Shown: one piece after another, positions 3,447-45,163 of the stretch
Numbering within the stretch: the stretch's first letter is position 1
Layout of the letters: each line of letters begins with the position of its first letter
Assembly: GCA_014729795.1 (NCBI GenBank)
Contig: WJJI01000028.1
Coordinates: forward strand, 1 to 56,620
Direction of reading: 5' to 3'
Origin: Candidatus Moraniibacteriota bacterium
Lineage (GTDB): Bacteria; Patescibacteriota; Minisyncoccia; CAIUEV01; JAHKAQ01
Length of the DNA: 56,620 bases
Notes under the pieces: generated by a model
The model's input: the letters and a program-made list of their open reading frames with translations, nothing else
Databases searched by the model: none
What the model was told of the DNA's origin: nothing
Program-made: the position numbers and the translations under genes

Positions 3447-3518
3447 AAAAGTCACGTGTCTGGTAAATATTTAAGCCACCAAAAAATAACTTGATAATTT
3501 TCTCAAACGAATAATTTT
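3447..3518 (+). repeat. Intergenic inverted-repeat family, degenerate copy in flipped orientation
   Basis: GTCACGTGTCTGGTAAATATTT...AATTTTCTCAAACGAATAATT resembles the reverse complement of the copies at 6664 and 31472. Confidence 0.55.
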
Positions 3519-3554
3519 AATTTACAATATTTTAATAAAGTAATAATTTATACC

Positions 3555-5411
3555 ATGAAAACCAATTTAATACGAAAAGCTTATCTAGATTTTTTTCGCT
3601 CAAAAAATCACGCGATTATTCCCTCTGCCTCTTTACTGCCGGAAAACGACCCTACGACTTTGTTTACCGGCTCTGGCATGCAGCCCATGGTGCCTTATCT
3701 GCTTGGAGAAAAACATCCGCTAGGTAAAAGAATTGCTGATTCTCAAAAAAGCTTTCGCGCTCAGGATATCGAAGATGTAGGTGATAATCGCCATACTACT
3801 TTTTTTGAAATGCTTGGTAATTGGAGCTTGGGTGATTATTTTAAAAAAGAACAAATTTCTTGGATTTTTGAATTCCTAACTCAAGTATTAAAATTAGATC
3901 CCCGGCGTCTTTATGTTTCAGTTTACCAAGGTAATTCCAAAATCAATATTGATCCAGACCAAGAAGCGGTAAAAATTTGGCAACAACAGTTTAAAAAAGT
4001 AAATATCCAAGCCCAAACAGTTAAAAATGCTTCAAAAAAAGGCATGGGTAAAGGTCGTATCTTTTTTTACGATGAAAATGAAAACTGGTGGAGTCGCGCT
4101 GGCGTGCCTGATAATATGCCTATTGGCGAACCTGGCGGACCAGACTCGGAAATCTTCTGGGATTTTAAAGCCTCTCGCCAAATTCATGAAGATTCTATCT
4201 ATAAAGACCAACCTTGCCATCCAGCTTGTGATTGTGGTCGTTTCTTAGAAATCGGCAATAATGTTTTTATGCAATATTTAAAAACTAAAAATGGATTCAA
4301 GCCGCTGGAAAATAAAAATATTGATTTTGGGGGCGGGTTGGAAAGATTGGCCGCTGCCATCCAAGATGATCCCGATATGTTTAATATCGATTTATTTAAA
4401 CCCTTAAAAAAAGAATTGGAAAAACTTAGCCAAAAACAATATCAGTTAAACCAAAAAACAACCCGGGCATTCCGCATTATAATGGATCATATTCGTGCCG
4501 CTGTCTTCTTAATTAGCGATGGGGCCGGCCCTTCAAATAAAGATCAGGGATATTTTACTCGACGTCTAATTCGCCGCGGCATCCGTTCAGCCCATCAGCT
4601 CAACATTCAAGATAATTTTACCCAAAATTTGGCCCGCTCGATTATTAAAATCTATGAAAAACCCTACCCGGGACTTAAAAATAACCAAAACCTAATTTTG
4701 GATGCTCTGAAAAAAGAAGAAACCGGTTTTAAAAAAACTTTAAATCAAGGCTTAAAAAAGTTTGAGCAACTTAGGAAAAAACAAAAACATATTGATGGAC
4801 AACAAGCTTTTGATCTTTATCAATCTTATGGTTTCCCGATTGAAATGACTCAAGAACTGGCTCAAGAACATGGTATCAAGGTTGATCTTCAAGCCTTTAA
4901 ACAAGCTCAAAAAAATCATCAAAAAATTTCTCGCCAAGGCGCTCAAAAAAAATTCAAAGGTGGTTTGGCGGATCAACAAAAATCTACTATTCAGCTTCAT
5001 ACTGCGGCTCACTTATTATTAGCAGCCTTAAAAAAAATACTTGGCCATCACGTCAAACAGAAAGGCGCCAATATCACGGCTGAGCGTCTTCGCTTCGACT
5101 TTTCTCATCCAGCTAAATTAACAGAACAAGAGATTAAAGAAACCCAACAATATGTCAATGAAATTATTGAAAAAAACTTGCCGGTTAAAATGCGGGAAAT
5201 ATCTATTGAGCAAGCCCGAGAACAAAACATAACTGGAGAATTTAATGATCGCTACCAAAATCTTGTAAAAATTTACACAATCGGCAGCTACTCCCAAGAA
5301 ATTTGCGGCGGCCCACATGTTAAAAACACCAATGAACTGGGAAAGTTTCAAATCATCAAACAACAAAGCGCGGGCGCGGGTGTTAGACGTATAAAAGCTA
5401 TTTTGGAATAA
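3555..5411 (+). CDS. alaS: Alanine--tRNA ligase (short form, no C-Ala domain)
   Basis: DPTTLFTGSGMQP, RHTTFFEMLGNWS, editing motifs HTAAH and CGGPH; ends at GVRRIKA. Confidence 0.97.
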   Translation: MKTNLIRKAYLDFFRSKNHAIIPSASLLPENDPTTLFTGSGMQPMVPYLLGEKHPLGKRIADSQKSFRAQDIEDVGDNRHTTFFEMLGNWSLGDYFKKEQISWIFEFLTQVLKLDPRRLYVSVYQGNSKINIDPDQEAVKIWQQQFKKVNIQAQTVKNASKKGMGKGRIFFYDENENWWSRAGVPDNMPIGEPGGPDSEIFWDFKASRQIHEDSIYKDQPCHPACDCGRFLEIGNNVFMQYLKTKNGFKPLENKNIDFGGGLERLAAAIQDDPDMFNIDLFKPLKKELEKLSQKQYQLNQKTTRAFRIIMDHIRAAVFLISDGAGPSNKDQGYFTRRLIRRGIRSAHQLNIQDNFTQNLARSIIKIYEKPYPGLKNNQNLILDALKKEETGFKKTLNQGLKKFEQLRKKQKHIDGQQAFDLYQSYGFPIEMTQELAQEHGIKVDLQAFKQAQKNHQKISRQGAQKKFKGGLADQQKSTIQLHTAAHLLLAALKKILGHHVKQKGANITAERLRFDFSHPAKLTEQEIKETQQYVNEIIEKNLPVKMREISIEQAREQNITGEFNDRYQNLVKIYTIGSYSQEICGGPHVKNTNELGKFQIIKQQSAGAGVRRIKAILE

Positions 5412-5425
5412 AAATTTTGTAAATG

Positions 5426-5458
5426 AAAAGAGGCCGATTCAAAGAATCCGCCTCTTTT
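5426..5458. terminator. Bidirectional intrinsic terminator
   Basis: AAAAGAGGCCGATTC-AAA-GAATCCGCCTCTTTT (one mismatch) between convergent alaS and M23 genes. Confidence 0.8.
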
Positions 5459-5507
5459 ATGAAAAAATGTTTAAATTAAGCAGTGTTTATAACCCATCAA
5501 ACCCTTT

Positions 5508-6563
5508 TCAGGTGTTGGAATTTAAAATAAAAGAAATTATAATTGATAAAAACTCCAAACCCTTTCCCGACTCCGGAATATAAACGTATTCTGGAACAAC
5601 CTCAATTACTCCAATTTCATCATCTTCATCGGAAAAATTGTTATCGCTATTGTCATCATAATCATTTTCCACCCCAACTCCAATATAATAAATTCCCAGC
5701 TTATTCGGGGCTAATACAAATTCTTTTTCCCATTTATCGTCACCACCTTCCAGCGTTTTAATTGAGTCTTCCCCGATAATCTCATCATTATGATCAAAAT
5801 ACCGGTCTCGACTCACATAATAATAAACTTTACTTTCGGTTGTAGCGCTATCACTAGCCTTATTTTTAATACGCGCCTTAACTGTAATATTCTCTCCCGG
5901 GTATACTTTTAAACTTCGGTTTCCTGCAATTTCTTGATCGTTTTGATTAATCCACAATTCGCTTACTGCCATATCCGGCTCAGCTGCTTCTCGATGGTTA
6001 TCAATAAAATCGCTTGGCTCGTAATACCAATTTTTTACTTCATCCCGACTCCAGCCTGTAACCCAATCGCAAGGGCCGCGCTTTTTTTTCCGAACCTCAA
6101 AATGCAAATGCGCTCTATATTCATTGTTGTAACCTTGACCAATTGTTCCAATTTTTTCACCTCGATTAACCGAATCATTATCCCCGACTCTACGACTTTG
6201 TAGATGCGCATACTGCGACCAAACATCATCGCCATTAGCCAATTCATGTTTTACCACAATCACGTTGCCCCAGCCACTACCACAGTTTCCACTGTAAACA
6301 ACCTTTCCATTCGCGATTGCATAAACTGAATCACCTAAGTCCGTATTGCCGCCGCCATCGCCATTCCAGTCTTCTCCTGGATGATAAACTCCTCCATAAG
6401 TATACTCTAAATACCCCCAACCGAAAGTTTTGTTGTAACCGGTTCCGTCTGGTTTGCCCACGGGATAGTCAAAACTATCTGCTACCGCGTAAGCCCAACT
6501 TTGTTCAAGATTAAATCCAAAAACCACTGCCGCCAATACTAAAATCAACCAACATTTTTTCAT
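5508..6563 (-). CDS. Secreted M23 family peptidase with CARDB/Ig-like C-terminal domain
   Basis: Signal peptide, HPGED (HxxxD), YAHL, AHLHFE; hydrophobic C-terminal tail. Confidence 0.88.
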   Translation of the reverse strand: MKKCWLILVLAAVVFGFNLEQSWAYAVADSFDYPVGKPDGTGYNKTFGWGYLEYTYGGVYHPGEDWNGDGGGNTDLGDSVYAIANGKVVYSGNCGSGWGNVIVVKHELANGDDVWSQYAHLQSRRVGDNDSVNRGEKIGTIGQGYNNEYRAHLHFEVRKKKRGPCDWVTGWSRDEVKNWYYEPSDFIDNHREAAEPDMAVSELWINQNDQEIAGNRSLKVYPGENITVKARIKNKASDSATTESKVYYYVSRDRYFDHNDEIIGEDSIKTLEGGDDKWEKEFVLAPNKLGIYYIGVGVENDYDDNSDNNFSDEDDEIGVIEVVPEYVYIPESGKGLEFLSIIISFILNSNT

Positions 6564-6663
6564 TGCATGCCTTCCTTTCGTTAGGAAATTTCTTCCTGGT
6601 TTTTAAAGAGCCCTATGCTCTTTTTGTTTACCTTCCGAGTATATCAAAGCTCTATCAAAGCTT

Positions 6664-6787
6664 TTATGACTTACGCGATTGGAAAAATTTTATAGAAAGT
6701 ACCAAGAATTTTGCAAGGCTTATTGAGTACACGTAGTCAAAAACCTCAAGATTTGCTCTAAAAATTTACCAATCGCGTAAGTCATAA
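6664..6787 (-). repeat. Intergenic inverted-repeat element (REP/MITE-like), best-preserved copy
   Basis: Perfect 19-bp terminal inverted repeat TTATGACTTACGCGATTGG / CCAATCGCGTAAGTCATAA. Confidence 0.9.
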
Positions 6788-6801
6788 TTTTTTAATAAAG
6801 A

Positions 6802-7419
6802 TTAAATCCGTTTAAATGATTCTACAATCTTTTTCTTTTCTTCTTGAGTTATTTGAGAATCATAAAAACTAATCATAAAATCTTTACCGTTAATTATAAA
6901 CTTATAAGCTTCTAAATTATCAACACATTTTTCATGGGTGCAAAATTCCTCAATTTCATAATAATAACCGCCTAAATCATTTATTTCTACTTTTTTTGTG
7001 GGCGAATGATCAAAATAAGTATCATGACTATCTTGATTTTGTCTTACCCTTAGGTCGAATATTTTGCTTTGATCTTGATCTTCTTTGTAAAAAATAATTA
7101 AGTGATTTGTCTGATCCATAACCTTTTTATATTCCAAATCAGCTGGGTATTTAACTTCAAACTTATGCTTTATATCCTGATAAGTCTTCATTTTTAATTC
7201 ATTCATATTACGAGACTGGTCTGTCTTTATGGTTTTCTCATCTTGTCTTTGAATTGAAGCATCTGACAAATTCTGTTTTTTCGCTTTTTGTTCATTTTTT
7301 TCGATAGAGTTTTCGATTTGTAACTTCTTTGATTCAGTTGGCTCGACTTTTTCTTTGGCTGATCTTGTACAACCAATTAAAAGTAAACCGCCTAAGAAAC
7401 CAATCAATGCTTTTTTCAT
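6802..7419 (-). CDS. Putative lipoprotein
   Basis: MKK + hydrophobic stretch + LLIGC lipobox; FEVKYP motif. Confidence 0.75.
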   Translation of the reverse strand: MKKALIGFLGGLLLIGCTRSAKEKVEPTESKKLQIENSIEKNEQKAKKQNLSDASIQRQDEKTIKTDQSRNMNELKMKTYQDIKHKFEVKYPADLEYKKVMDQTNHLIIFYKEDQDQSKIFDLRVRQNQDSHDTYFDHSPTKKVEINDLGGYYYEIEEFCTHEKCVDNLEAYKFIINGKDFMISFYDSQITQEEKKKIVESFKRI

Positions 7420-7521
7420 GCTCTTTTAGTTAATTATTAAATAACTATTATTAAATATACAACTATTGTCCCATTATAAAAAAACAAGATGAAAAAAAGA
7501 TAAATTTTTTATTAATTTTTA

Positions 7522-8613
7522 TTAATATCGTTTAGATTTTACCCAATCGATAATTTTTTGCTTTTCCGTAGAGGTTAGCTTACTGCCAAAATTATTTTTC
7601 AGTTTATTTTCAATTTCAAATATGACTTGTCGCATTGCTTGAATCGAATCCATATCGCTAAATCTTACAGGCTCCACTTTAAAATTTAGACTCTGTAAAT
7701 GAAACCATTGCTTATTTATCAGTGCTTTAGCTATTACTTGATATTTACCGGGTTTTGTTAGATTAGTTTCAGAAAATTGAAAATGAAGACTTTTGTTGGG
7801 CTTTAACCTTAAATTACGCAAGTATCTAGGTTTTTTTGTTTCAGGCTTTGTTAGATCGGTTATAAATTTATTATTGTTATCATGAACAGCCAAAGCTAAT
7901 TGTTGAATTTGAATGTCTTGTTTACCTGTATTTTTTAATTTAAACTGCGCGTCAAAATTTGATTGCGTCGAATCGGCGCTTAAATTAGCATAAATAGGAT
8001 CGGCTTTTTTCCAAAAATCATAAACTTTCAAATCATTAATCGGGTTTTTCAACACATAGCCGCTAAGTTGCTTAAACAACCAATCTTTATTAATAGCCCA
8101 ACCTGGACAGCTTTTACTAGAATAATCTCGATGAAATTTTATTTTCAAAGTATCGATTTGTAGATACTTCATTAAAATTTTGATCGCCCCTACCGCATTG
8201 TCGTAAGTTTTACCGCTCCATAGTTGATAATCATAGTTCCCAACCACCTCGATCCCGATTGAATAATCCATTAACCGATATAAACTGCTATTTGTATAGC
8301 CTGAAAAAATTCTACCGGTTCGTTTATGTTTCCATAAAGCATTACCTTTGCCAGCGTGAATACCAACTTGATCCATATCTGTAAATAGCCAAATTCCATC
8401 CTCAGCGATAAACAAATGAGGACCTACCGGCCAACCCTTGCTTTCATAAAAACGTTTTAAACCCTGAATTGATTTGCTTCCCTGCCATTGTTCCTTTGTT
8501 GGTTTCCAAGTATGATGAATTACCAACCAGCCGGGTTTAATCTGACCAAAGTCTTTACCGCTGACATAAGCTTCAAATTCCTTGATGGTCAGCTTTTTAT
8601 TTACAATCCGCAT
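7522..8613 (-). CDS. N-acetylmuramoyl-L-alanine amidase (Amidase_2/PGRP-like) with C-terminal beta-sandwich
   Basis: VIHHT, SIGIEVVG, FHRDYSSKSCPG zinc-amidase motifs; no signal peptide. Confidence 0.85.
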   Translation of the reverse strand: MRIVNKKLTIKEFEAYVSGKDFGQIKPGWLVIHHTWKPTKEQWQGSKSIQGLKRFYESKGWPVGPHLFIAEDGIWLFTDMDQVGIHAGKGNALWKHKRTGRIFSGYTNSSLYRLMDYSIGIEVVGNYDYQLWSGKTYDNAVGAIKILMKYLQIDTLKIKFHRDYSSKSCPGWAINKDWLFKQLSGYVLKNPINDLKVYDFWKKADPIYANLSADSTQSNFDAQFKLKNTGKQDIQIQQLALAVHDNNNKFITDLTKPETKKPRYLRNLRLKPNKSLHFQFSETNLTKPGKYQVIAKALINKQWFHLQSLNFKVEPVRFSDMDSIQAMRQVIFEIENKLKNNFGSKLTSTEKQKIIDWVKSKRY

Positions 8614-8902
8614 GTCTTTATAGAATAATTCAAATTAATTTGGGTTCCAATAAAAGGCGATTAGGTAAACCCTGTTTATTTCCACAGCTTAATATGCATT
8701 AACAATCTACCATAATATTAATCTAAAAATTTGTAAAGGAGCCTCTGAAGAAAAGAATGTGATTAAATTACATTTTTTGAAAAAACTTTAAAGCATAATA
8801 ATTTAATTATGTTGAAAAATCATTTCAAAAAATTTGCCAAAAACCAAGATTACAATAATTACTTTTTTTTCAAAGATTCCCTCAGATCAGAGTTTAAAAA
8901 AG

Positions 8903-8986
8903 TGCCGGTGGTCGGATTCGAACCGACACGAACCGAAGTTCACGACATTTTGAGTGTCGCGTGTCTGCCAGTTCCACCACACCGGC
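8903..8986 (-). tRNA. tRNA-Leu(CAA)
   Basis: GCCGGTG acceptor stem, CGACA-CTCAAAA-TGTCG anticodon arm, long variable arm, GGTTCGAATCC T-arm; CCA not encoded. Confidence 0.96.
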
Positions 8987-8996
8987 TTTCTACTGA

Positions 8997-10106
8997 TTAA
9001 TCTTCCAATTCCGGCTTTTCCAGCTCTCTAACATCAACCTTGCCTCCCGATTTACCCTGACTTATACGGTACACATCTTTATCGATTTTCGCAAATTCTT
9101 TAGCCGAATTATTATAAGCGCCAACCGTTGTCGCTAAATGAACGCCTACTTTTTGAAAATACACCTGGTAATTCTTTAAGTGCCGATCCAATTTTTCAAT
9201 ATTTTTCTTAAAATCTCCAATAGACTCCTTCATTTTTACCAAGCTTAATCCGTGCAAAACCGTTTGCAGGTATGCATAAAAAGAAGTGGGCGAAACTAAA
9301 ATCACCTTTCTTCTGTATGCGTAATCGATTAAATCATCAGCGGTTTGCTTTAACTCGCCTATCTTGGCGTTAAGCAGATCATGATATAAACCCTCGGAGG
9401 GAATAAACATAAAAGCAAAATCAAAAGTGCTTTCTTTGGGTCTTATATACTTGGCGGTCTCATCGATTCTTTTTTTTATGGAAGCGTAAATTTCTTTTTG
9501 TAATCTCTGTTTTTTTTGCGGGTCTACCTCCTCTACCATTTCATTATATTGTCTTAGTGTAAACTTTGAATCAATAGGTAAAATTTTCTTCTTATAAAAA
9601 ATCGCCGCATCCACGATATCTCCATTTTTAAATCGATATTGCATCTTATATCGATCCGGCTCAAAAACATTCTTAAGCATTGATTCTAAATAATACTCCC
9701 CTAAAACCCCTCTCTGCTTTGGGTTGCGTAAAATATTCTCAAGACTTTGCATTTGACCGGCAAAATCCGCGATCTTTTTATTTGTTTGTTCAAATCTTTC
9801 AATTTTACGAGCGGTTTGATCGATTAAATTCCGACTCTCTTTAAATTGCTTTTCAATAGTCTGGGTGGAATTATCAATGCCTTTGCTCAACAAATCGCTA
9901 ATTCGATCCAATCTATTCTGAATTTCATTACGACTTTGACCGGAAAACTTATGCACTTCCTGTCTTAAATCGCTCAATAAAGGCATGATTAATTTGTCTT
10001 GGTTTTTTTTATCTTGTTCCTGTTTAAGCTCTTCAAATTTTCGGTTCACTAAATAAATAATCACAGCAAAACCAAACACAATAAGTATTATTATAATTTT
10101 TTCCAT
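8997..10106 (-). CDS. rmuC: DNA recombination protein RmuC family
   Basis: N-terminal TM, coiled coil, RGVLGE, IDSKF, FAFMFIPSEG, VSPTS. Confidence 0.92.
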   Translation of the reverse strand: MEKIIIILIVFGFAVIIYLVNRKFEELKQEQDKKNQDKLIMPLLSDLRQEVHKFSGQSRNEIQNRLDRISDLLSKGIDNSTQTIEKQFKESRNLIDQTARKIERFEQTNKKIADFAGQMQSLENILRNPKQRGVLGEYYLESMLKNVFEPDRYKMQYRFKNGDIVDAAIFYKKKILPIDSKFTLRQYNEMVEEVDPQKKQRLQKEIYASIKKRIDETAKYIRPKESTFDFAFMFIPSEGLYHDLLNAKIGELKQTADDLIDYAYRRKVILVSPTSFYAYLQTVLHGLSLVKMKESIGDFKKNIEKLDRHLKNYQVYFQKVGVHLATTVGAYNNSAKEFAKIDKDVYRISQGKSGGKVDVRELEKPELED

Positions 10107-10475
10107 TTAGGTAATCTTAACTTGTTTTAATTTCTTATTTTGTCGCTCTAGCTTAGTCTTTAAAATCTCAATTTTTTTATTAATCTCGCCCACTCGATTG
10201 ACTTTTTCCCGCAATTCAAATTGATCTCTTTTTAATTTGGTTTCCAGCCGACCTAATTTATGTTTAATTGAGACAATTTCTTCTTCTACCTCTTGCACCG
10301 AATCCTGAGCAAATCTAATTTGTAAATCCAAATCCTTTTTTTCATTTTCCAAACCCTGTAACTCGTCTTCAAGGTTTTGAATTGTTGCTTTATAGTTTCT
10401 TATTAAATTTTCTCTTTCTATCCTATGCTCCCGGCGTTCTTTATTGGCTTCATCCTGTTTAAAGTAATCGGTCAT
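10107..10475 (-). CDS. Hypothetical coiled-coil protein
   Basis: Heptad-rich 122-aa ORF directly abutting rmuC. Confidence 0.7.
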   Translation of the reverse strand: MTDYFKQDEANKERREHRIERENLIRNYKATIQNLEDELQGLENEKKDLDLQIRFAQDSVQEVEEEIVSIKHKLGRLETKLKRDQFELREKVNRVGEINKKIEILKTKLERQNKKLKQVKIT

Positions 10476-10503
10476 GATAAATAATTATTATTAAATCTAT
10501 TAT

Positions 10504-10575
10504 AAAGCGTATGAAGTAACCGTGACCAAAAACCGCAATATTTTCTCAAAAAATCCGCCAAAAGCGTAAGTCATA
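10504..10575 (-). repeat. Inverted-repeat family, half copy
   Basis: ...CGTGACCAAAAACCGCAATATTTTCTCAAAAAATCCGCCAAAAGCGTAAGTCATA aligns to the right half of the 6664 and 38000 copies. Confidence 0.75.
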
Positions 10576-10614
10576 TTTCCATCTAATTTAATAACTTTAA
10601 AACTTAATCGGTAA

Positions 10615-18045: not shown

Positions 18046-18059
18046 TTTTTTTATTTTAA

Positions 18060-18127
18060 GAATTATACGTTAAAAAATTTTCATAATCATTGTTTAACGG
18101 TTCAAAAAATTACCAAACGTATAATTC
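18060..18127 (-). repeat. Inverted-repeat family, short copy
   Basis: Perfect 12-bp arms GAATTATACGTT / AACGTATAATTC with the family AAAATTACCAA motif. Confidence 0.8.
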
Positions 18128-18143
18128 CCGCTTTTTTAAAAAA

Positions 18144-25543: not shown

Positions 25544-25677
25544 TACTTTTGCCCTTTTAGACAAATTTTAAAAAACATCAACTCGGGATTTTTTCAAAAA
25601 TTTTCTAAAACTTATTGAATACACGTTTCCAAAAAAATTCAGCTTTTTCTGCAAATTTATTATATAATTAACAAGTC
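25544..25677 (-). repeat. Inverted-repeat family, degenerate copy
   Basis: Internal CTTATTGAATACACGT...AAATTTA matches CTTATTGAGTACACGT of the 6664 copy; arms eroded. Confidence 0.6.
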
Positions 25678-28131: not shown

Positions 28132-28566
28132 CTAATTAACCTGCGCAAAGTTTATTTTTTCTCCGGCCTTATCTAAATCAACATACAAACCCTTAATTTT
28201 CTTCACTTCAATCTGCTGTTTAATTTTGTTCATGGCTTCTTTAATTTGCTTTAACTGAAACTCTTTTTCTTGTTCAATTGAATCAAATTTTTTTCTTCCG
28301 CCATAAGCTCCGCAATCAGCGTGATTAATTATTATAATCTGCTCAATACAGTGAAGCCGGCTGGAAACTTGCAAACTTTTCTCCACTAAATTGCTCTTGG
28401 GGTCTAATATCTCTTTAGCCGCGCCCGGTACCGCGATAATATCAAAATCATTAATATTATTGGTTTTTAAATATTCAATCACCGGCTCCCAAAACCGAAA
28501 ATCCATACAAAGCACAATCGCGGCTTTACAATGATGAGTTTTTTGGTATTTAAACCTCATGGTCAT
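28132..28566 (-). CDS. Beta-carbonic anhydrase-like protein
   Basis: CMDFR (CxDxR) and HADCG (HxxC) zinc-ligand motifs. Confidence 0.75.
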   Translation of the reverse strand: MTMRFKYQKTHHCKAAIVLCMDFRFWEPVIEYLKTNNINDFDIIAVPGAAKEILDPKSNLVEKSLQVSSRLHCIEQIIIINHADCGAYGGRKKFDSIEQEKEFQLKQIKEAMNKIKQQIEVKKIKGLYVDLDKAGEKINFAQVN

Positions 28567-30180: not shown

Positions 30181-30262
30181 ATCTTATTCTGTTAGAAAAA
30201 ATGCTTGTCCCTTATCATACTTAAATCAGTTTCATGGCTTAACTTATCAAATGCGAAAGTTC
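30181..30262 (-). repeat. Inverted-repeat family, highly degenerate copy
   Basis: AACTTATCAAATGCGAAAGTTC resembles the right arm AATTTACCAAACGCGTAATTC. Confidence 0.4.
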
Positions 30263-30664: not shown

Positions 30665-30668
30665 CTTT

Positions 30669-31442: not shown

Positions 31443-31471
31443 TGTTTTAATTTATTTAATAATTATTTATA

Positions 31472-31557
31472 GGAATTACGCGTTTGAGGAAATTTTCCAA
31501 AAAACTCGCATGATCGAAAAGATTCAGACTCAAAAAATTTACCAAACGCGTAATTCC
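31472..31557 (-). repeat. Inverted-repeat family copy
   Basis: Perfect 15-bp arms GGAATTACGCGTTTG / CAAACGCGTAATTCC. Confidence 0.88.
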
Positions 31558-31591
31558 AAATTTAAGATCTATTAAAAAACCTAAATTCTTA

Positions 31592-31641
31592 AGAATTACC
31601 TGCTTGCAAAAATTTCAAAATTTATCCAAACGGCTAATTCC
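31592..31641 (-). repeat. Inverted-repeat family, short degenerate tandem copy
   Basis: AGAATTACCTGCTTG...AAATTTATCCAAACGGCTAATTCC. Confidence 0.65.
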
Positions 31642-31651
31642 TAATTTTAAA

Positions 31652-37055: not shown

Positions 37056-37982
37056 ATAAAGGGCGTTTTCCGGATTAGACTGCCCGGTCTTTATTGAGTA
37101 ATCAATCTGACTAATTTTCACCATTATTCTCTTTAAGCTTTCTAGGGTGTAACGATTCGCGTAGCTTAAGTTTTTAGCTACCACAAAACGATTCAATTTG
37201 GTTTGCTTAACAATACTATCAATAGAGTTAGCCGCTGCGCCTTGAGCGCTTTTTATTTTTGTCAAAGTTCGATAACCATAAGCAATCATACTGAGTAAAT
37301 AATAATGGTTTTCCCCGGTTTCCAAGTGATTACCTAATAATTTCAAAGCTGCTTTTCTGTCTCCTCTACCCAAAGCCTCGATTGTTTTAAAAATATCATT
37401 GATTATTTGAGCGTCGGTAATCTGTTCTAGGTCTTGTATTTGAATCCGCTTGCCTTGCTTGTAGTTTTTAAGCTTATCCAAAGCATTCATAATCATAAAT
37501 GGATCCTGAAAATAATCCTGAACTAAACGCTGAAGCACATCCCTGGAAACCAAAATATTTTTTTCTTTGGCTAAACCGCCAATATAATTTATTAAATTAG
37601 CTCCATCAAGTCTTGTAAAATCTTGCTTATAACTAGCGTTTCTTTGTAAATATTTATAAAATTGGGTACGCTTATCTATTTTGGGTTCAAAAAAATATAA
37701 AACATTATCTTGATCTTTGTATAAATTGTTATTTTTTAACAAGTTAAGCAATTTTTCTTGTTGTTCTTTATTGGTTTGGCCTGCAAAATCAGACATAAAA
37801 ACATTGCTTTGCTTGCTAAACAATCCGCCTCCTCCTAATAAATCCGCTAATTTATCAAGCTTAAAATCTGTAAAGTCGCTTAACTCCACCAAAACCTGTT
37901 TTTTTTCCTGAAGCTTTAATCTAATTTGTTTTTTTCTATTCAGTATTTGGTGTTCGCCAACCCCATAGTATAAATATAGCAT
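37035..37982 (-). CDS. holA: DNA polymerase III delta subunit
   Basis: LYLYYG, GLF, DKR, IFK.IEAL, D..IKTG; typical neighbour of rpsT. Confidence 0.9.
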   Translation of the reverse strand: MLYLYYGVGEHQILNRKKQIRLKLQEKKQVLVELSDFTDFKLDKLADLLGGGGLFSKQSNVFMSDFAGQTNKEQQEKLLNLLKNNNLYKDQDNVLYFFEPKIDKRTQFYKYLQRNASYKQDFTRLDGANLINYIGGLAKEKNILVSRDVLQRLVQDYFQDPFMIMNALDKLKNYKQGKRIQIQDLEQITDAQIINDIFKTIEALGRGDRKAALKLLGNHLETGENHYYLLSMIAYGYRTLTKIKSAQGAAANSIDSIVKQTKLNRFVVAKNLSYANRYTLESLKRIMVKISQIDYSIKTGQSNPENALYLLAAFS

Positions 37983-37999
37983 TTTATTTCAATGTTTAC

Positions 38000-38113
38000 T
38001 ATGACTTACATGTTAAGGAGATTTTGCAAAAAATACCGGAATTTTTAAAGCGCATATTAAGCACACGTGAAAACCGCGGAGTTTTCTCTGAAAATTTACC
38101 AAGCGCGTAAATA
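38000..38113 (-). repeat. Inverted-repeat family, full-length diverged copy
   Basis: Co-linear with the 6664 copy throughout: TATGACTTAC...TACC..GAATTTT...CACGT...AAAACC...CTCT.AAAATTTACCAA.CGCGTAA. Confidence 0.88.
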
Positions 38114-38172
38114 CTTGAAATTTACCCTAAAAAAAATTTATGTTTCGAGCTCTAATTGAAAATTTCCGATTC

Positions 38173-39363
38173 CTAGATTGTTACCGGCTCCCATTTTAAT
38201 TTCTGGCCCGGCTCTAATACTTCAACCCAAATTTGTCCGGGAATAAGTTTAATTTCCTCTCCGTTTTCATTCAAGAATTTCAATTTAGCGGAATTCAAGC
38301 ATACTAATTCATTACCAATTACACAGTTACCTTTTTTCTTCTCCCATTTGCCTTTTATTTCCTTGCCCTCAATGTAAGCGTATAAATCTCCCTCTCCCTC
38401 CACGTCAACGTCATTATATTGACCTTCAATCTGTCTACTGTTGGCAAACATTACTATTACATTTTTCGGCGCTACTTGTTCTTTGGTGTTGGCGTCCGTA
38501 TCAATTCGTCCGCCCCATTTTCTTAAATAACTGTTGGTTTTAGGATCATAAGTATACTGTACTCGAAACTGAGAAGCAAAACCAACTGTTAAGGTACCGC
38601 CTTTGCCTCGTTCATTCATTGGGCTTTCTTCTCTATGAGGATAGCCTTCAAAATGATTCTCGGTTCGATAACCTAAAGATTTGGCTGATGATAAAAGACC
38701 CTCATATGAAGTAAAGCCATTATCCGGCGCCGGTATTCCCGGTTTTCGGTAAAAGGCTCCACCTTTGTTAGCCAAAGCATCTAAATCCGGAACCGTATTC
38801 TTGTTTTTTAACATTTCTAAAGCAAAATGAGAACCACCCCAATGCGCATAAATAGCGTCCAAACCCTTGGCAAGGGTTAAATAATCATGCCTGGCGCTCC
38901 TAATTGAACCAATTTCTTCTGGAGAATTACAAACATAAATCGCCATTAATCTGGTTACGCTTGCGGTAATCACCGGCATTTCAATCACCATATCTGCGGT
39001 TGAATTACCAGAAAGCGGTCGCACGCTTTTATCAGCGGCCAACATAACCGCGATGGGACGACGATCTTTATTGGCTGGCTCTTCACATTTCAAGCCTGAA
39101 ATTGGACTCACCTCATCCGGATTCAAAGGTTGTTGTTTTTTATTAAAATCAGGAAATTCTGAACTATATTCAAATTCTTGTTCTTCAGCTCCTGATTGTT
39201 CATTCTCCGTTGCTGGCTTATTATTGTTGCCGCTAAATACTTTTGAAAGCGCGATTAAACCCACAATTCCAATCACTACCATACCAATTGTGATTTGCAG
39301 ACCTCTGTCATTTTTAACTTTTTCCCATATTTTTTTCATAGGATTTTCCGAAATTTTTTTCAT
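38173..39363 (-). CDS. DUF3048 (YerB-like) membrane-anchored protein
   Basis: RPIAVM, TRLMA, GSIRSAR, HWGGS, PGQIWV. Confidence 0.88.
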   Translation of the reverse strand: MKKISENPMKKIWEKVKNDRGLQITIGMVVIGIVGLIALSKVFSGNNNKPATENEQSGAEEQEFEYSSEFPDFNKKQQPLNPDEVSPISGLKCEEPANKDRRPIAVMLAADKSVRPLSGNSTADMVIEMPVITASVTRLMAIYVCNSPEEIGSIRSARHDYLTLAKGLDAIYAHWGGSHFALEMLKNKNTVPDLDALANKGGAFYRKPGIPAPDNGFTSYEGLLSSAKSLGYRTENHFEGYPHREESPMNERGKGGTLTVGFASQFRVQYTYDPKTNSYLRKWGGRIDTDANTKEQVAPKNVIVMFANSRQIEGQYNDVDVEGEGDLYAYIEGKEIKGKWEKKKGNCVIGNELVCLNSAKLKFLNENGEEIKLIPGQIWVEVLEPGQKLKWEPVTI

Positions 39364-39433
39364 AATATAATTTAAATATTAATAATTAATGCGAATTAAA
39401 AAATGTTAATATTTTCAATTAAGTGTTTGTAAT

Positions 39434-39697
39434 TTACTTCATTTCAATCGCTTTAACCGGGCAAATGTCTGAACACAATCCACAACCTTTGCAATAATCA
39501 TAATCGATTTTAATCTGATCATCTGCCGGCTTCATTGCATCCTCCGGACAATTACGAGTACATGTCTGACATTTTACACATTTTTGCTGATCTATCAAAG
39601 GTTTTTCCATCCGCCAGTTTCCGGTTTTGTTGGTTTTTGAATTGCCTGGCTGCACAATATAGCCTCCAATTGGAATATCTTTCCAGCTTTTTAACAT
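39434..39697 (-). CDS. porD: Pyruvate/2-oxoacid:ferredoxin oxidoreductase delta subunit
   Basis: KTGNWR..KP, two 4Fe-4S motifs, DYDYCKGCGLC. Confidence 0.93.
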   Translation of the reverse strand: MLKSWKDIPIGGYIVQPGNSKTNKTGNWRMEKPLIDQQKCVKCQTCTRNCPEDAMKPADDQIKIDYDYCKGCGLCSDICPVKAIEMK

Positions 39698-39725
39698 TAT
39701 ATAATTTGATTAATATGTTAAGAAC

Positions 39726-40286
39726 TTACAAACTATCATAACCTCGATCAATAACATTCATGGTTTTAGCCATGATTTCCGGACCTAATTTTTCTTCAAA
39801 TTTATTCTTGTAAACCTTTTTAAAATCTTCAAGCGAGATCATTTCTGTTATTTTAATTAACTTCCCAAATATGGCCGCTGAAAAATGAACTCCCTTCTCC
39901 CCCTCAATAAACTCTAAGGCATCTATCAAATAAAGCTTGCCATCGTAATTTATCCTTCGCAAAATCACTTCAACAATGTCCTCTTCTTCTTTGTTGGTAT
40001 TCACTATTAAAATCGGATTGTCTCTTAAGGTCTCTATAACTTCTCGATTTTCTAATAAGCTATCGTCTAGCATTATTACTAAATCAGGCTTACTGACGGG
40101 CTCTTTGGTTAAAATTTGATTATTACTCATTCTTACATAAGCTCGAACCGGCGCCCCGGTACGTTCTGGACCATATTCGGGAAAAGCCTGAGCGAATTTA
40201 CCTGATTCTATGATAGCTTCGGCTAATAACATCGCCATAGTTTTGGCTCCTTGTCCGCCTCTACCGTGAATAATTACTTTGTACAT
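39726..40286 (-). CDS. porC: Pyruvate/2-oxoacid:ferredoxin oxidoreductase gamma subunit
   Basis: HGRGGQG, FPEYGPERTGAP. Confidence 0.93.
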   Translation of the reverse strand: MYKVIIHGRGGQGAKTMAMLLAEAIIESGKFAQAFPEYGPERTGAPVRAYVRMSNNQILTKEPVSKPDLVIMLDDSLLENREVIETLRDNPILIVNTNKEEEDIVEVILRRINYDGKLYLIDALEFIEGEKGVHFSAAIFGKLIKITEMISLEDFKKVYKNKFEEKLGPEIMAKTMNVIDRGYDSL

Positions 40287-41344
40287 CTATAAGTTTCAAT
40301 TTTTTTTATTAAAAATTTTTTAGCTTCACTACAAGTTATTTTTTTCTTAACTTTGCCTTTTTCAAAATACATCAATTCCTTATTTTTTGAATCCATCCCG
40401 CTTACTCCAAAGTCAGCTTGCTTTGCCTCGCCCGGTCCGTTTACCAAACAACCCATGACTGCTACTTTTATTTGCTTTTTCATATTTTTGGTTGAACGTT
40501 CTAATTCCTTAGCTAATTGTTCAACATCAATGCAAGTTCGCGCGCAAGTCGGACAACTGATTATCTCAACTCCGGCTTTTCTTAAACCTAAAAAACTTAG
40601 CATTTTACGCCCCGCTTCAATTTCTTTTTTTGGATCTTGGCTTAAAGATACTCTTATAGTATCGCCAATTCCTTGATAAAGCAAGACCCCAAAAGCCAAA
40701 GCCGATTTAATCAATCCAGAAGAACCAAAGCCAGCTTCGGTCACCCCTAAATGCAAGGGATAATCAACAAACTTACTAATTTGTTCATTGGCTTTCACTG
40801 TTTCAATAACATCGCTGTGCTTAACTGAAATTACTAAATTGCTAAATCCCCGCTGCTGAAAAAAATCAATTTGTCTCTTAGCGGAAGCAACCAAAGCTCG
40901 CGCTTTTGGCTTTTTAAATTTTTTTAAAATATCTGTTTCAATGGAACCGGAATTAACCCCAATTCTTATGGGAATATTACTATGCTTAGCCGCCGCGATT
41001 ATTTCGAGCAAGCCTTTTGGTTTAATATTGCCGGGATTAATCCGAATTTTATCCGCTTGATTGCGACAAGCCATAACCGCTAACTTATAATCAAAATGGA
41101 TATCAGCAATAATCGGTATGTTTATCTTAGGTTTAATCCTGCTAATCGCCATGGCCGAGGCTTTATCCGGAATAGCTACTCGAACCAACTCGCAACCCGC
41201 TTTTTCCAGATTTTTAATTTGTTTAACCGTGGCTCTTACATCGCTTGTTAATGTGTTAGTCATGGACTGAATCCGAATCGGCTCCTTACCTCCTATTGCT
41301 ATTTGCCCGATTTTAACCTTTTTGGTTTTTCTTCTTAATAACAT
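40274..41344 (-). CDS. ispG: (E)-4-hydroxy-3-methylbut-2-enyl-diphosphate synthase
   Basis: QSMTNT, ADIHF, RINPGN, PLHLGVTEAG, SCPTCAR, GCLVNGPGE. Confidence 0.98.
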   Translation of the reverse strand: MLLRRKTKKVKIGQIAIGGKEPIRIQSMTNTLTSDVRATVKQIKNLEKAGCELVRVAIPDKASAMAISRIKPKINIPIIADIHFDYKLAVMACRNQADKIRINPGNIKPKGLLEIIAAAKHSNIPIRIGVNSGSIETDILKKFKKPKARALVASAKRQIDFFQQRGFSNLVISVKHSDVIETVKANEQISKFVDYPLHLGVTEAGFGSSGLIKSALAFGVLLYQGIGDTIRVSLSQDPKKEIEAGRKMLSFLGLRKAGVEIISCPTCARTCIDVEQLAKELERSTKNMKKQIKVAVMGCLVNGPGEAKQADFGVSGMDSKNKELMYFEKGKVKKKITCSEAKKFLIKKIETYRCTK

Positions 41345-42266
41345 TTTTTATAGTTTGAGCGATTAACCCGGCGCAAGAAATTATTCTAAATTTCGCTATC
41401 CGCTTTTTTTCCGGAATTGGATAAGAGTTGCTTAACCAAATTTTATCAATTCGACTTCTCTGAATTTTTTCCCAAGCTCGATTAACCAACACCCCATGAG
41501 CGATACAAATTAAATAATACCTTACCCCCAAGTTTTTAATGATTTCACATGATTTAATTAAGCTGAAACCGGTTGAAACAAAATCGTCAAAAGAAATCAC
41601 TTTCTTGCCGTCTAAATCATCAGTAAAATCCGCGAAAGTAACCTTGCCAGTATTTAGATCCCGATCTTTCTTTAACTTTATTAATTGCAATCCTAATTTT
41701 TCCGCTAAAGTTTTAGATCTTTCCAGCGCTCCCTTGTCAATACAAAGCACACTCCATTCCCGCCTTTGTTTTTTTATCTTTTGAGCCAATAAATCGACAA
41801 AAATATCAACCGCGTTTAAAACTTTAACCTCTAGGCCAATTTCTTGAAAATATTTTTGGTTAAGCGGTGAATGAGTCTCTAGTAAAATTACCTCTTGAAC
41901 CCCGGCGGATTTAATAAGTTTTGCCACCAATCGAGCCGATAAAGGCTCCCCCGGACGAAAAATCTTATCCTGAGCCGAATAGCCAAGCCAAGGAATTACC
42001 GCCACAATTCTTTTTGCTCCACTGTTTCTACAAGCATCCACTAAAAGCAACAATTCCATCAACATTTCATCAACCGGTTCAACCAAAGACTGTAACACAA
42101 AAACCAAATCATCGCTTAAGTCTTCCTTGATTCGAATTCGTTTTTCGCCATTGGGAAATTTATCAATATCTACTTTTGTTAGTTCAATTTCCATCTGTTT
42201 TTCCAATTCTTGAGCCAATATTTTATTGGAATTACCGGCGATTATCTTGGTTTTTTTATAAAGCAC
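41313..42266 (-). CDS. prs: Ribose-phosphate pyrophosphokinase
   Basis: FPNGE, PWLGYSAQD, GEPLSA, DDFVSTG, HG. Confidence 0.92.
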   Translation of the reverse strand: MLYKKTKIIAGNSNKILAQELEKQMEIELTKVDIDKFPNGEKRIRIKEDLSDDLVFVLQSLVEPVDEMLMELLLLVDACRNSGAKRIVAVIPWLGYSAQDKIFRPGEPLSARLVAKLIKSAGVQEVILLETHSPLNQKYFQEIGLEVKVLNAVDIFVDLLAQKIKKQRREWSVLCIDKGALERSKTLAEKLGLQLIKLKKDRDLNTGKVTFADFTDDLDGKKVISFDDFVSTGFSLIKSCEIIKNLGVRYYLICIAHGVLVNRAWEKIQRSRIDKIWLSNSYPIPEKKRIAKFRIISCAGLIAQTIKNVIKKKNQKG

Positions 42267-42331
42267 GGTTTTATTTAGCTATAAATTATAAATTTCTGCT
42301 ACCGCCTCAAAATATTTAAATTACCCGGGTA

Positions 42332-43363
42332 TTATTTTTCAATCGTCAAACCTTCTTTAATGCCTTCAAAAATAATCTCATATCTTCCATCATTCTGCAA
42401 ATTCACGATCACATATTGCTTCTCTTGATTCATAATTACATAAGGTTTGTCTTTTGAATCAAATTTAACGTAATCCTTGGGCACTAAATAGCTTGGTCGC
42501 GCTAAAGTTTTTAACTCAATTTCCACCAATTCTCCGGTTAATCCTGGTTTAAGTTCGCTATCTATGGCAATTTCCACATAAATCAGTCCAGCGTAAGCGT
42601 ATTTATTTTTATCAATTTCGTTAATTACCCCCTTGATACTTTCAGAGGAATTAACTAAGTCCACTTTAGCCTGTAATCCAAATGAAAGGTGATTGTTAAA
42701 ATCCTGAGGTAAAAATGATCTAATAACCATTCTTGAATTCCCGCTAGCTCTGACTTCTTTTTCTAAAACCTTAGCTTGCAATTCGCCAACCGCTTTTTCT
42801 AATAAAGTCATTCTGGGATTTTTGCTTGGGGTTGGCTGTTCTTGGTCTATTTGACTCTTTAAGCTAACCTGCTCCTTTTTTTTTGGCTTAGATAAATCAA
42901 TTAAAGAATTATCTTGTTTTGATTGCCGATAATCATTTTCATTACGCTCGTCCTTGAAATCTTGTAAATCAATCACAAAAGTCTCGTCATCATATTCAAA
43001 TCTCTGTTGTTTTTTATTTTTATAATAATATTGATAATCTTTGGGCTTTACGATATCTATCACTCCCGGAAAAACAATCTGCTTTTCATATAATTCTTGA
43101 TGTATAATATACGTGTTTTGATTTTGCTCTTTCTCAGGTTCGGGGCTAATTGGAGCGGGATTTAATTTTTTAACCGTTCTATTCTCTCGAATATAATTTG
43201 TGAAAATCAAAATCATTAAACTGACCAACAAAACTATCAAATAAACACTTAAGCCCTTGTTTTTTTGTAGGGTTTTTTTGGTTTTTCTTAAAATAAAATC
43301 TAACTTGCCTCTTAAATTGGCAACCCATTCCTGTTTAATTTTTTCTACTTGTTCTTTATTCAT
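42332..43363 (-). CDS. Membrane-anchored protein with membrane-fusion-protein-like C-terminal beta domains
   Basis: Single TM; LKPGLTG...LVP...GIKEG pattern resembling RND adaptor C-termini. Confidence 0.5.
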   Translation of the reverse strand: MNKEQVEKIKQEWVANLRGKLDFILRKTKKTLQKNKGLSVYLIVLLVSLMILIFTNYIRENRTVKKLNPAPISPEPEKEQNQNTYIIHQELYEKQIVFPGVIDIVKPKDYQYYYKNKKQQRFEYDDETFVIDLQDFKDERNENDYRQSKQDNSLIDLSKPKKKEQVSLKSQIDQEQPTPSKNPRMTLLEKAVGELQAKVLEKEVRASGNSRMVIRSFLPQDFNNHLSFGLQAKVDLVNSSESIKGVINEIDKNKYAYAGLIYVEIAIDSELKPGLTGELVEIELKTLARPSYLVPKDYVKFDSKDKPYVIMNQEKQYVIVNLQNDGRYEIIFEGIKEGLTIEK

Positions 43364-43497
43364 AAAACCGCTTGTTTAAATGATCCTATTAGCAAAAATC
43401 ATGATTAAAACAAAACAGTCTATTTTGAATATTTTCTTATATTTTGTCAAGGATTGGATGTTGCTAGGTTCCTATAGACCCGCTTAAAAAATTCGGC

Positions 43498-43653
43498 ATG
43501 CTAATTAAAATTTTTTACCTTATCCTGATTTTATCAGTCTGTTTTTCTGCGGCTTTAACCTGTTTAATCGCCATATTTACCCGTTTTTTTAATTTTTTTA
43601 ACCTCAAAATCAAGTTAAAGCAAGGTTGCTACTGTTCCCGACGTTGCAATTAA
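43498..43653 (+). CDS. Possible small membrane protein (51 aa, not in ORF track)
   Basis: MLIKIFYLILILSVCFSAALTCLIAIFTRFFNFFNLKIKLKQGCYCSRRCN fills part of a 426-bp gap. Confidence 0.3.
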   Translation: MLIKIFYLILILSVCFSAALTCLIAIFTRFFNFFNLKIKLKQGCYCSRRCN

Positions 43654-43789
43654 TATTTTTCCAATTAAAGCCATTTAATTTGCCGGAAGCTTGTTGCTGA
43701 TTTAGCCGCAATCCCTGCAATTAAAAGCTCTGACTATGCTGAAAATTCCCCATCTTCTTAGTTTTTGTCCTTTTCCTATACGTTTCTAT

Positions 43790-44368
43790 CTATTCCAGAT
43801 TCGCGTGTCTTTTTTTTAAATCAGCTTCGGTTTTCCCTAATTTGCTCATTAAAATCGCTATCAAAGTGTCTAAAGTTATTAAGGCTGCGGTTTCAAAGGT
43901 GGTTCCCATTGGCGCTATTTGTCTTCTCGTGCCTAACAATTGCATAGTCAAATAATCTCCGGATTTTTCTTTGGTTTTCGTTTTTAAATATATTACGTAA
44001 TCTGCTTGTTGATGTAATTTTCCGGATTGCTCGCCAGTTATGCCTAAAACCACCAAGCCTTGCTGTTTGGCAATTTTTAACATATTAACTACACTCACCG
44101 TGTTTCCTGAACCTGAAATAAACAAAATCGCATCTCCTTTAGCAACCGCCGGGGTCACGGTCTCTCCTATAAAAAACACTTCTATCCCGAGGTGCATTAA
44201 CCGCATAGCAAAAGCCTTGCCAACCAAACCGCTGCGACCCGCGCCATAAATAAAAACTCGATTGGCAATACTCAGTTGGTTACCTACTCGCTCAATTTGA
44301 TTGAAATTCGCTTTTTCCAATACTTGTTTTAAATTGTTTACGTAATCTTTTATTATAGCGTTAATCAT
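43790..44368 (-). CDS. hxlB: 6-phospho-3-hexuloisomerase (SIS)
   Basis: GAGRSGLVGKAFAMRLMHLG, GETVTP, SGSG.T, PMGTTFE, RHANLE. Confidence 0.96.
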   Translation of the reverse strand: MINAIIKDYVNNLKQVLEKANFNQIERVGNQLSIANRVFIYGAGRSGLVGKAFAMRLMHLGIEVFFIGETVTPAVAKGDAILFISGSGNTVSVVNMLKIAKQQGLVVLGITGEQSGKLHQQADYVIYLKTKTKEKSGDYLTMQLLGTRRQIAPMGTTFETAALITLDTLIAILMSKLGKTEADLKKRHANLE

Positions 44369-44377
44369 ATTTTGTAA

Positions 44378-45031
44378 TTATAGTTCATCCAAAGCTTTTT
44401 TAATTTTTTTAGCTTCCTCCTTGGAATTTTCGGCTCTAGTGATGCCTCCGCCAACAATCACAACATTTAGATTTCGTATTCCCGCCAATTCCCTAACGCT
44501 TTGCGCGTTAATACCACCGGCCACAGCCAATTGCAAATTAGTAATCTTGGCGATTTCTTCAATTTGGGCAAACGGAGACATGCCTTGCCGTTGTTGACTT
44601 ATTGTTGTGTGAACCTCCAATAAACCCGGCTGTAACGCTTCAATGTCTTTAATTCTTCGCTTTAAACCTTCAAAACCTACCAATTCCATAATTCCACAAA
44701 TATCAACCGCGATTGTAACATCATCATGTTTTTTAGCTTCTTCTACCGCTTCCTTTACGGTTTCCAAAGGCGATATCCCCAAAACATGGACAATATTTGC
44801 GCCGGCTTGCGCCGCAATTCGGGTTTCCAAATCTCCCACGTCAGCTGCCTTCATATCTGCATCAATGATTTTATGCGGAAACCTGTCTTTTAAAGCTCTG
44901 ACCGCTTCCAAACCCACTGCTTTTATCAAAGGTGTGCCTGCCTCCATTATATCAATATAATCAGCGGCCTTTTCCGCTACTTCAAGCGCCGGATTTAACT
45001 CGGTAAAATCCAAGGCTAATTGTAATTTCAT
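44378..45031 (-). CDS. hxlA: 3-hexulose-6-phosphate synthase
   Basis: KLQLALD, EAGTPLIK, ADMKAAD, AVAGGI, IVGGGIT; adjacent to hxlB. Confidence 0.9.
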   Translation of the reverse strand: MKLQLALDFTELNPALEVAEKAADYIDIMEAGTPLIKAVGLEAVRALKDRFPHKIIDADMKAADVGDLETRIAAQAGANIVHVLGISPLETVKEAVEEAKKHDDVTIAVDICGIMELVGFEGLKRRIKDIEALQPGLLEVHTTISQQRQGMSPFAQIEEIAKITNLQLAVAGGINAQSVRELAGIRNLNVVIVGGGITRAENSKEEAKKIKKALDEL

Positions 45032-45044
45032 TTTTTAATATTAA

Positions 45045-45163
45045 AAAATTAGCGATAACATTTTTTTAACAAGTTAAGAAACTTCTCAAAAAAACAAAGC
45101 GACGTGACCAAGTTTTCATTTTTTGAAAAATTTTTTATCAAAAATACCCAACGCTTAATTCTT
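45045..45163 (-). repeat. Inverted-repeat family, degenerate copy
   Basis: AATTAGCG ... internal CGTGACCAA (shared with the 10504 copy) ... AAAATACCCAACGCTTAATTC. Confidence 0.6.

Follow-up and report, generated by a model that had tools for sequence, protein, structure and literature searches.

Dispersed palindromic repeats of a Moraniibacteriota genome: probable fossil IS701-type MITEs with near-uniform orientation relative to strand bias

The window considered here is a stretch of 56,620 nucleotides that forms the whole of contig C19 (WJJI01000028.1) in a Candidatus Moraniibacteriota genome assembly (GCA_014729795.1, referred to as G000; 1.078 Mb in 50 contigs, 36% G+C, 93% complete). A family of short inverted repeats is scattered between its genes, and the question raised by this locus is what these repeats are and how they came to be there. 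A first-pass annotation had taken them to be either a non-autonomous mobile element or a structured RNA family, partly domesticated. The reading put forward here, to which a probability of about 80% is attached, is that the repeats are decayed, non-coding copies of an IS701-type miniature inverted-repeat transposable element (MITE), probably fossil, which lie in a near-uniform orientation with respect to the strand bias of the genome.

The repeat family is real and stands far above chance. A genome search with nhmmer, for which window positions 6664-6787 served as the starting query, returned 27 non-overlapping matches at E<=1e-3, and an iterated profile raised this to 46 copies at E<=0.01 (39 at E<=1e-5), spread over 25 of the 50 contigs. 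Four dinucleotide-shuffled genomes gave no profile match at E<=0.01 (best score 14.1 bits) and the reversed genome gave none with the same profile, which disposes of the worry that the copies align no better than shuffled controls. The alignment of 21 full-length copies extends over 138 columns with a mean column identity of 74%. All copies had been described as intergenic and, judged against crude open reading frame (ORF) calls made in this analysis, nearly all of the 46 matches are; of the two exceptions, one overlaps an 83-aa ORF and the other is a short, weak match with about one fifth of its length inside an ORF. Non-coding DNA makes up approximately 11% of the genome.

Sites in the window were scored with a covariance model with filters off, alongside nhmmer. 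The copies, together with one marginal candidate, are as follows:

6665-6786, minus strand: full-length 122-bp MITE copy running from TATGAC to GTCATA; covariance model (6661-6790) 128.5 bits, nhmmer 104.6 bits
38000-38117, minus strand: near full-length copy of about 118 bp; covariance model (37996-38120) 93.1 bits, E 6.7e-19; nhmmer 87.8 bits
31466-31563, minus strand: shortened, internally deleted copy, its ends GGAATTACGCG...CGCGTAATTCC; covariance model 51.3 bits, E 2.9e-9; nhmmer E 1.9e-5
31586-31647, minus strand: very short copy of 62 bp with both arms kept; covariance model 35.1 bits, E 1.5e-5; one end in repeat family D1
10500-10575, minus strand: half copy consisting of one arm and the core; nhmmer 51.4 bits, E 7e-14, profile positions 49-124; repeat families D1-D3
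18053-18134, minus strand: degenerate short copy with ends GAATTATACG...CGTATAATTC; covariance model alone, 26.7 bits, E 1.3e-3
25549-25655, minus strand: marginal candidate remnant; nhmmer E 0.003-0.018, covariance model (25556-25609) E 0.079

The two longest copies align end to end, as had been claimed, and both nhmmer and the alignment of copies reproduce the plus-strand consensus that was first proposed. The copy at 38000-38117 has one degraded end and a small deletion inside. The half copy is situated downstream of dnaE, where the covariance model gives a match over 10440-10579 (22.8 bits, E 0.01), and the copy at 18053-18134 was not picked up by nhmmer up to E 10. Ten copies had originally been counted in the window: the covariance model supports six of these and leaves 25556-25609 marginal, but the sites near 45045 and 3447 score at noise level (E about 3) and the site near 30181 has no match. 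The two short copies at 31466-31563 and 31586-31647 are adjacent and share one spacer (31443-31651), which separates the ATP synthase genes for the A chain and the C subunit.

The element is about 122 bp in length and takes the form of a long imperfect palindrome, with consensus ends TATGACTTACGCG...CGCGTAAGTCATA and an outer 16-20 bp that reads TA(T/G)GACTTACGCG(C/T)TTGG. The ends TATGAC...GTCATA are recognisable in 22 copies. For the copy at 6664-6787, complementarity between the 50-nt arms (6664-6713 and 6738-6787) is 78%. Homology between the two arms extends over some 55 nt around a short asymmetric centre, and the alignment reveals a dozen positions, including transversions, at which they differ. 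It is because of these differences that the orientation of a copy can be called; in good copies the two strands are separated by 30-70 bits.

How the element inserts can be read from its flanks. The five bases outside each end match at 2.91 of 5 positions, against 1.77 of 5 when the flanks of different copies are paired (22 copies, permutation p 2e-4), and the same copies show no signal for duplication lengths of 2, 3, 4, 6, 7 or 8. This flanking resemblance is the signature of decayed 5-bp target duplications, and it places the terminal 'TA' within the inverted repeat, since the duplication starts immediately outside the ends. The flanks of the 6665-6786 copy are one such decayed duplication, with 5-mers (6660-6664 and 6787-6791) that agree at three of five positions. 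The family therefore has the attributes of a MITE, being short and non-coding, with terminal inverted repeats, a duplication of fixed length, many copies and ends in common with an autonomous insertion sequence (IS) found elsewhere in the phylum, and the first of the two original proposals, a non-autonomous mobile element, is upheld. A MITE of the IS630/Tc1-mariner type was considered and rejected, as there is no length-2 signal outside the repeat and PF13358 (DDE_3) was not found in G000. Neither of the partners that had been suggested, an IS630-like DDE_3 gene and a RAYT/Y1 gene, was found in this assembly.

The second proposal, a structured RNA family, fared less well, and with it the idea that the repeats are functional transcribed elements (a small RNA, an mRNA-stabilising hairpin or a promoter or terminator cassette) kept by selection, such that their repetition would reflect function rather than mobility. 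Individually, the copies form a single long hairpin (z-scores of -3.3 to -7.8), and RNAalifold returns the full hairpin from the copy alignment; moreover, the copies are intergenic and mostly co-directional with their neighbouring genes, they often lie 15-50 nt from the next start codon and two of their positions are common to two genera, all of which would suit a function. The folding, however, is about equally good on either strand and carries no covariation beyond the consensus. Pairing is kept in 83.7% of alignment cells compared with 83.1% when partners are shuffled among copies, a level attained by 60 of 500 shuffles, and the covariation score of 0.189 (0.179 in shuffles) is reached by 66 of 500. 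No Rfam family threshold is reached by the element, and at lax thresholds the only matches are to generic hairpins of eukaryotic microRNA precursors, at no more than 27.7 bits where the thresholds are at least 70. The consensus contains a frame of 41 codons, but this is open in just 4 of the 28 copies and lacks 3-base periodicity. Sites resembling promoters or terminators, within the copies or near them, do not exceed the level in shuffled sequence. Convergent spacers are occupied at the same rate as others, the substitutions look neutral and the copies at orthologous positions are only 61-64% alike. The element is thus shown to be non-coding and without RNA constraint, and a functional cassette is a very improbable explanation of the family. 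The accompanying suggestion of partial domestication finds no support either, with a mutation spectrum that is neutral-looking and strand-asymmetric.

The end motif of the element was scanned for exactly in species-representative genomes and was also scanned in 401 genomes of the phylum. Several matches were found in G000 (19), G432 (12), G075 (5), G044, G271 and G299 (four each) and G170 and G346 (three each), with single matches in the phylum scan occurring at the level of the reversed-pattern control. Some genomes carry the motif as inverted pairs around unrelated interiors, that is to say the same ends with different insides. One such inverted pair bounds a 207-bp G+C-rich element in a Komeilibacteria metagenome-assembled genome (MAG). 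A contig of a Saccharibacteria MAG (L037, 4088-4147) contains a 60-nt perfect hairpin made of the ends GGACTTACGCGTTTC...GAAACGCGTAAGTCC and a short G+C-rich core, possibly a derivative of this end type reduced to the minimum.

In G432 the motif is located at contig ends. On its contig C22 the sequences AGGACTTACGCCTTTGG...CAAAGGCGTAAGTCCT bound a 1.1-kb element with a 326-aa ORF, the product of which belongs to the IS701 family transposases by the NCBIfam model NF049921 (358 bits, cut-off 250) and also matches Pfam DDE_Tnp_1 (4.9e-13) and DDE_5. A perfect 5-bp duplication, CATAG, lies on either side of this element, and the duplications ACTTT and AAGTT accompany 160-bp MITEs of that genome. 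The G432 loci are:

L041, 1999-3106
L040, 1999-2160
L043, 588-749
L044, 722-883

The IS701-like element of G432 is present in multiple copies, one complete and four cut at contig ends, with the C-terminal 43 residues 100% identical. The 160-bp MITE has identical 17-base ends as well as its perfect 5-bp duplications, and the two look like a currently active pair. No match to the IS was found in the plasmid collection.

Homologues of the transposase occur in 8 of the 401 sampled genomes of the phylum. They are bounded by AGGACTTACGCAGTTG in G229 and TAGGACTTTCGCACT in G370, and by more distant ends in G311 and G429. The check originally recommended, for a transposase flanked by the same ends, thus leads to IS701-family elements in G432, G229 and G370, all outside the assembly to which the window belongs. 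The duplication length is also equal, with perfect 5-bp duplications in G432 and the 5-bp signal in G000. Near-identical ends and 5-bp duplications around an IS701-family transposase gene, taken together, point to the window family being a MITE that belongs to this IS701-like clade.

In the genome family to which G000 belongs, the element is confined to a few members and appears to be old. Matches to the model were obtained in G000, in G002, which represents a sister genus (8-9 places), and in G005 (one), with none in G001, G003, G004 or G006. Two of the G002 copies are at positions orthologous to G000 copies, with orthologous flanking genes; a further G002 copy corresponds to an element-free 84-bp spacer in G000, the flanks of which are too diverged to define a junction. 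A MITE is found downstream of the same conserved tRNA gene in both genomes (G000:C10 11703-11988 and, in G002, L063 9660-10122), at differing distances, and these tRNA-associated copies could be an old shared insertion or a repeated target. The G000 copies have a mean identity of 77.6% to the consensus (range 65-88%) and of 66% to each other. A genome search for paired ends spaced as in an IS yielded six solo intergenic ends and no large element. The family is most likely an immobile fossil population, its copies being probable fossils because no transposase was found in the assembly and because they have diverged by about 22% from the consensus. The absence of an IS may nevertheless be one of assembly, as a multi-copy IS could be left unassembled in a genome that is 93% complete in 50 contigs.

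The decay of the copies is itself strand-asymmetric. In 28 full-length copies, sense-strand substitutions amount to 7.78 C>T per C site and 4.11 G>A per G site, an excess of the kind expected from a deamination pressure that acts unequally on the two strands. Measured against the family consensus, C>T per site on the G-rich strand is about twice G>A, and hence the old copies record a strand-asymmetric mutation pressure.

The property of the family that calls most for explanation is its orientation, a polarity not among the observations of the first-pass annotation. Taking as 'sense' the reverse complement of the plus-strand consensus, and local GC skew from 10 kb on each side with |skew| <0.06 treated as ambiguous, the sense strand coincides with the G-rich strand in 40 copies and with the other strand in two, leaving four ambiguous (binomial p 4e-10). 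With the cut-off at E<=1e-5 there are 35 in agreement, two in disagreement and two ambiguous. Local GC skew is a better predictor of orientation than the direction of the flanking genes. In spacers between co-directional genes, 28 copies are sense to the genes and three antisense, a further eight copies lying in convergent and seven in divergent spacers; where gene direction predicts nothing or the opposite, 13 of 15 copies still follow the skew (11 of the 13 that lie in convergent or divergent spacers where the skew is clear, and both of those between lagging-strand pairs). All nine model matches in G002 likewise follow local skew. The test was uninformative in G432, G170, G271, G346 and G299, owing to few copies or ambiguous strand calls. 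None of the element's 8-mers is conspicuous outside the copies as a KOPS- or Chi-like leading-strand polar motif.

It is possible, although we are inclined to doubt it, that the same IS701-type MITE inserted randomly and that the 40:2 polarity arose from the later loss of copies in the opposite orientation, possible causes being harm from read-through transcripts, antisense transcription or strand-dependent instability of the hairpin at the fork. The copies, at 77.6% identity to consensus, are old enough for selection to have had time, and the 28:3 ratio in co-directional spacers counts in its favour. The occupancy of spacers in strong-skew regions, 26 of 245 between co-directional leading-strand genes, 2 of 75 between lagging-strand genes, 6 of 56 in convergent and 4 of 53 in divergent positions, includes a depletion between lagging-strand pairs that also speaks for loss. 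A model based on transcription alone, however, would place about eight copies against the skew in the lagging-strand spacers and a model based on replication alone about eight with it, where none was observed against and two with. The adherence to skew of 11 of the 13 copies in convergent and divergent spacers is equally awkward for selective loss, promoter- and terminator-like sites are at background level, and the best-preserved copies are just as polarised, there being no disagreement and two ambiguous calls among the 31 highest-scoring. Hairpin instability meets a difficulty of its own. The sense strand does fold slightly better (mean -27.6 versus -24.5 kcal/mol, 20 of 28 copies, p 0.013), a consequence of the C>T asymmetry, but this better-folding strand lies on the presumed lagging-strand template, opposite to what instability would lead one to expect.

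An element that transposes through single-stranded DNA with a HUH/Y1 enzyme, of the REPIN or IS200/IS605-derived (PATE) kind, would explain an orientation relative to the lagging-strand template directly. Its attraction lies in the strong polarity, which IS200/IS605 elements display likewise in the part of an IS orientation survey available to us (PMC3971601), and in the folding of the whole element as one long hairpin. The 5-bp duplications and true terminal inverted repeats, both of which PATEs lack according to the part of their description available (PMC3119063), make such an origin scarcely credible, as do ends that match DDE-type IS701-like elements and the failure to find Y1_Tnp (PF01797) in the genome.

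For the IS701-type MITE, the polarity could instead have been set at insertion, by a coupling of transposition to the replication fork in which the two slightly different arms of the element are distinguished, and this has close to, though not quite, an even chance of being correct; what selective loss does not take of the remaining probability falls to other causes. A bolder version holds that the IS701-type DDE pathway of this candidate phyla radiation lineage inserts, or only survives, in one fork orientation, giving rise to MITEs that mark the leading strand (40:2 here and 9:0 in the sister genus) on a chromosome with two regimes of replication asymmetry; in this full form it is unlikely. 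The survey of IS orientation mentioned above describes family-specific replication biases, for which contacts with the beta-clamp are proposed, and in the part available MITEs are unmentioned (PMC3971601). A literature search for replication-oriented MITEs found none reported in the titles and abstracts retrieved.

The contigs of the assembly as a whole are bimodal in GC skew, with 491 kb in a strong class (|skew| >=0.11, mostly 0.15-0.20) and 498 kb in a weak class (<0.07), and the copies are distributed as 36 on strong, five on intermediate and five on weak contigs. The contig that forms the window belongs to the strong class. On strong-skew contigs the skew is independent of gene direction, at 0.200 for co-oriented genes, 0.100 for anti-oriented genes and 0.16 for spacers. 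On weak-skew contigs the coding-strand skew is 0.027 and the genes are strongly co-oriented.

Such a division raises the issue of whether the bin is chimeric, and the evidence falls on both sides. In favour of one organism, there is no excess of duplicates between the classes (33 similar pairs between them and 28 and 21 within) and the two classes complement one another in gene content. Moreover, the closest relatives by IleRS, taken from a weak contig, and by RpoB, taken from a strong one, are the same, G002 followed by G001, and one contig of G002 has orthologues of both classes side by side. Against this, symmetrised 4-mer composition differs between the classes (second principal component, rho -0.48), and identity to G002 orthologues is 54% for weak-class genes versus 62% for strong-class genes. 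The division may stem from a subtle mixture of bins or from a real chromosome of two regimes; if the regimes are real, a recent switch of strand on a large scale, or replication in two different modes, could lie behind them.

Within the window, the first four genes (1-5411) are on the plus strand and nearly all later ones (5508-56222) on the minus strand, and GC skew is -0.075 in 1-4000 and -0.15 to -0.25 in the remainder. No transposase family was identified among the 50 ORFs of the window at E<=1e-5, in keeping with what had been observed at the outset. Between the alpha and gamma subunit genes of the ATP synthase gene row is a 144-aa ORF (28132-28566, minus strand) with a putative carbonic anhydrase domain (Pro_CA_2, E 1.6e-19).

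The likeliest history for the family begins with the entry of an IS701-like element into the common lineage of G000 and G002. A palindromic deletion derivative may then have arisen that retained the ends of the IS, the outer 16-20 bp being the predicted binding and cleavage sites for a DDE transposase of the IS701-family clade that circulates in the phylum. The transposase, acting in trans, would have cut and pasted this derivative into AT-rich intergenic DNA, with the duplication of 5 bp at each insertion. Only insertions in spacers would have survived, those in genes presumably having been purged by selection. The autonomous copy was perhaps later lost, or is unassembled, and the remaining copies would be decaying under the strand-asymmetric C-to-T pressure of the genome.

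A number of points weigh against this account. The link to IS701 is founded on common ends and the same duplication length. The assembly that holds the family lacks, by search, an IS701-like transposase (with the G432 protein and NF049921), DDE_Tnp_1 (PF01609), DDE_3 and Y1_Tnp. No strain-level empty site was found, a metagenome scan with the RmuC neighbour having given only relatives at up to 49% identity, and neither sequencing runs nor RNA data being listed. With regard to orientation, copies are 4-fold rarer between lagging-strand than between leading-strand genes (p 0.04-0.07), a depletion to which transcription-related selection may contribute, and G000 and G002 are not fully independent replicates because two of the G002 copies are orthologous to G000 copies. 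Furthermore, in the available part of the orientation survey IS701 is without significant replication bias (P 0.223, 0.118 and 0.204; PMC3971601), and an insertion bias coupled to replication would therefore, as far as that part extends, be without precedent in the family.

The mobile DNA of these reduced, uncultured bacteria has been little described, and in a literature search that paired the term MITE with the names of the phylum, the term was absent among the matches listed. The family and its IS701-like partner clade offer the phylum a transposon system that is concrete and open to testing. For a DDE-type MITE such a one-way orientation is unusual and, if set at insertion, it would tie transposition of the IS701 type to the replication fork. 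As neutral reporters of strand-specific mutation, the old copies are also of use. For annotation, the copies account for the majority of the oversized spacers in the window, and they are best masked before searches for regulatory RNAs.

Short palindromic repeats of comparable form are found in several other bacteria. The Correia/NEMIS elements of Neisseria, the RUP elements of Streptococcus pneumoniae and the ERIC/IRU elements of enterobacteria are 100-160 bp in length, with terminal inverted repeats and a long hairpin. They occur as tens to hundreds of intergenic copies, and their partner transposase is sometimes missing from the same genome. The window element is set apart from these by its ends, its 5-bp rather than TA duplication and its partner family, and we know of no near-uniform orientation with respect to replication strand bias in any of them, nor did literature searches turn one up.

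The R0 and R2 repeats of Pseudomonas fluorescens SBW25 are also alike in that they are intergenic and have inverted repeats matching the ends of an IS of that genome. They are distributed very unevenly, around 40% of the genome being free of repeats ('repeat deserts'), as given in the part of the report available (PMC2718517). The host phylum, the sequence and the partner IS all differ, and here the repeat-poor half of the genome is also the half without GC skew. IS200/IS605, PATE and REP/REPIN elements share the capacity of a short sequence to form hairpins and, in the case of IS200/IS605, an orientation with replication (available part of PMC3971601), but they are without terminal inverted repeats or duplications (available part of PMC3119063) and depend on a Y1 transposase. 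The window element, unlike all of these, has both duplications and inverted repeats, and no Y1 gene (PF01797) was found in G000.

The closest resemblance is to the IS701-type insertion sequences of the NF049921 clade (G432:C22, G229:C20 and G370:C75). The inverted-repeat core AGGACTT(A/T)CGC is common to both, and both have 5-bp duplications and AT-rich intergenic targets. Unlike these insertion sequences, the window element has no transposase gene and measures 122 bp rather than approximately 1.1 kb. The extended palindrome of its interior bears no relation to the interior of the IS, and the element is strongly polarised with respect to GC skew.

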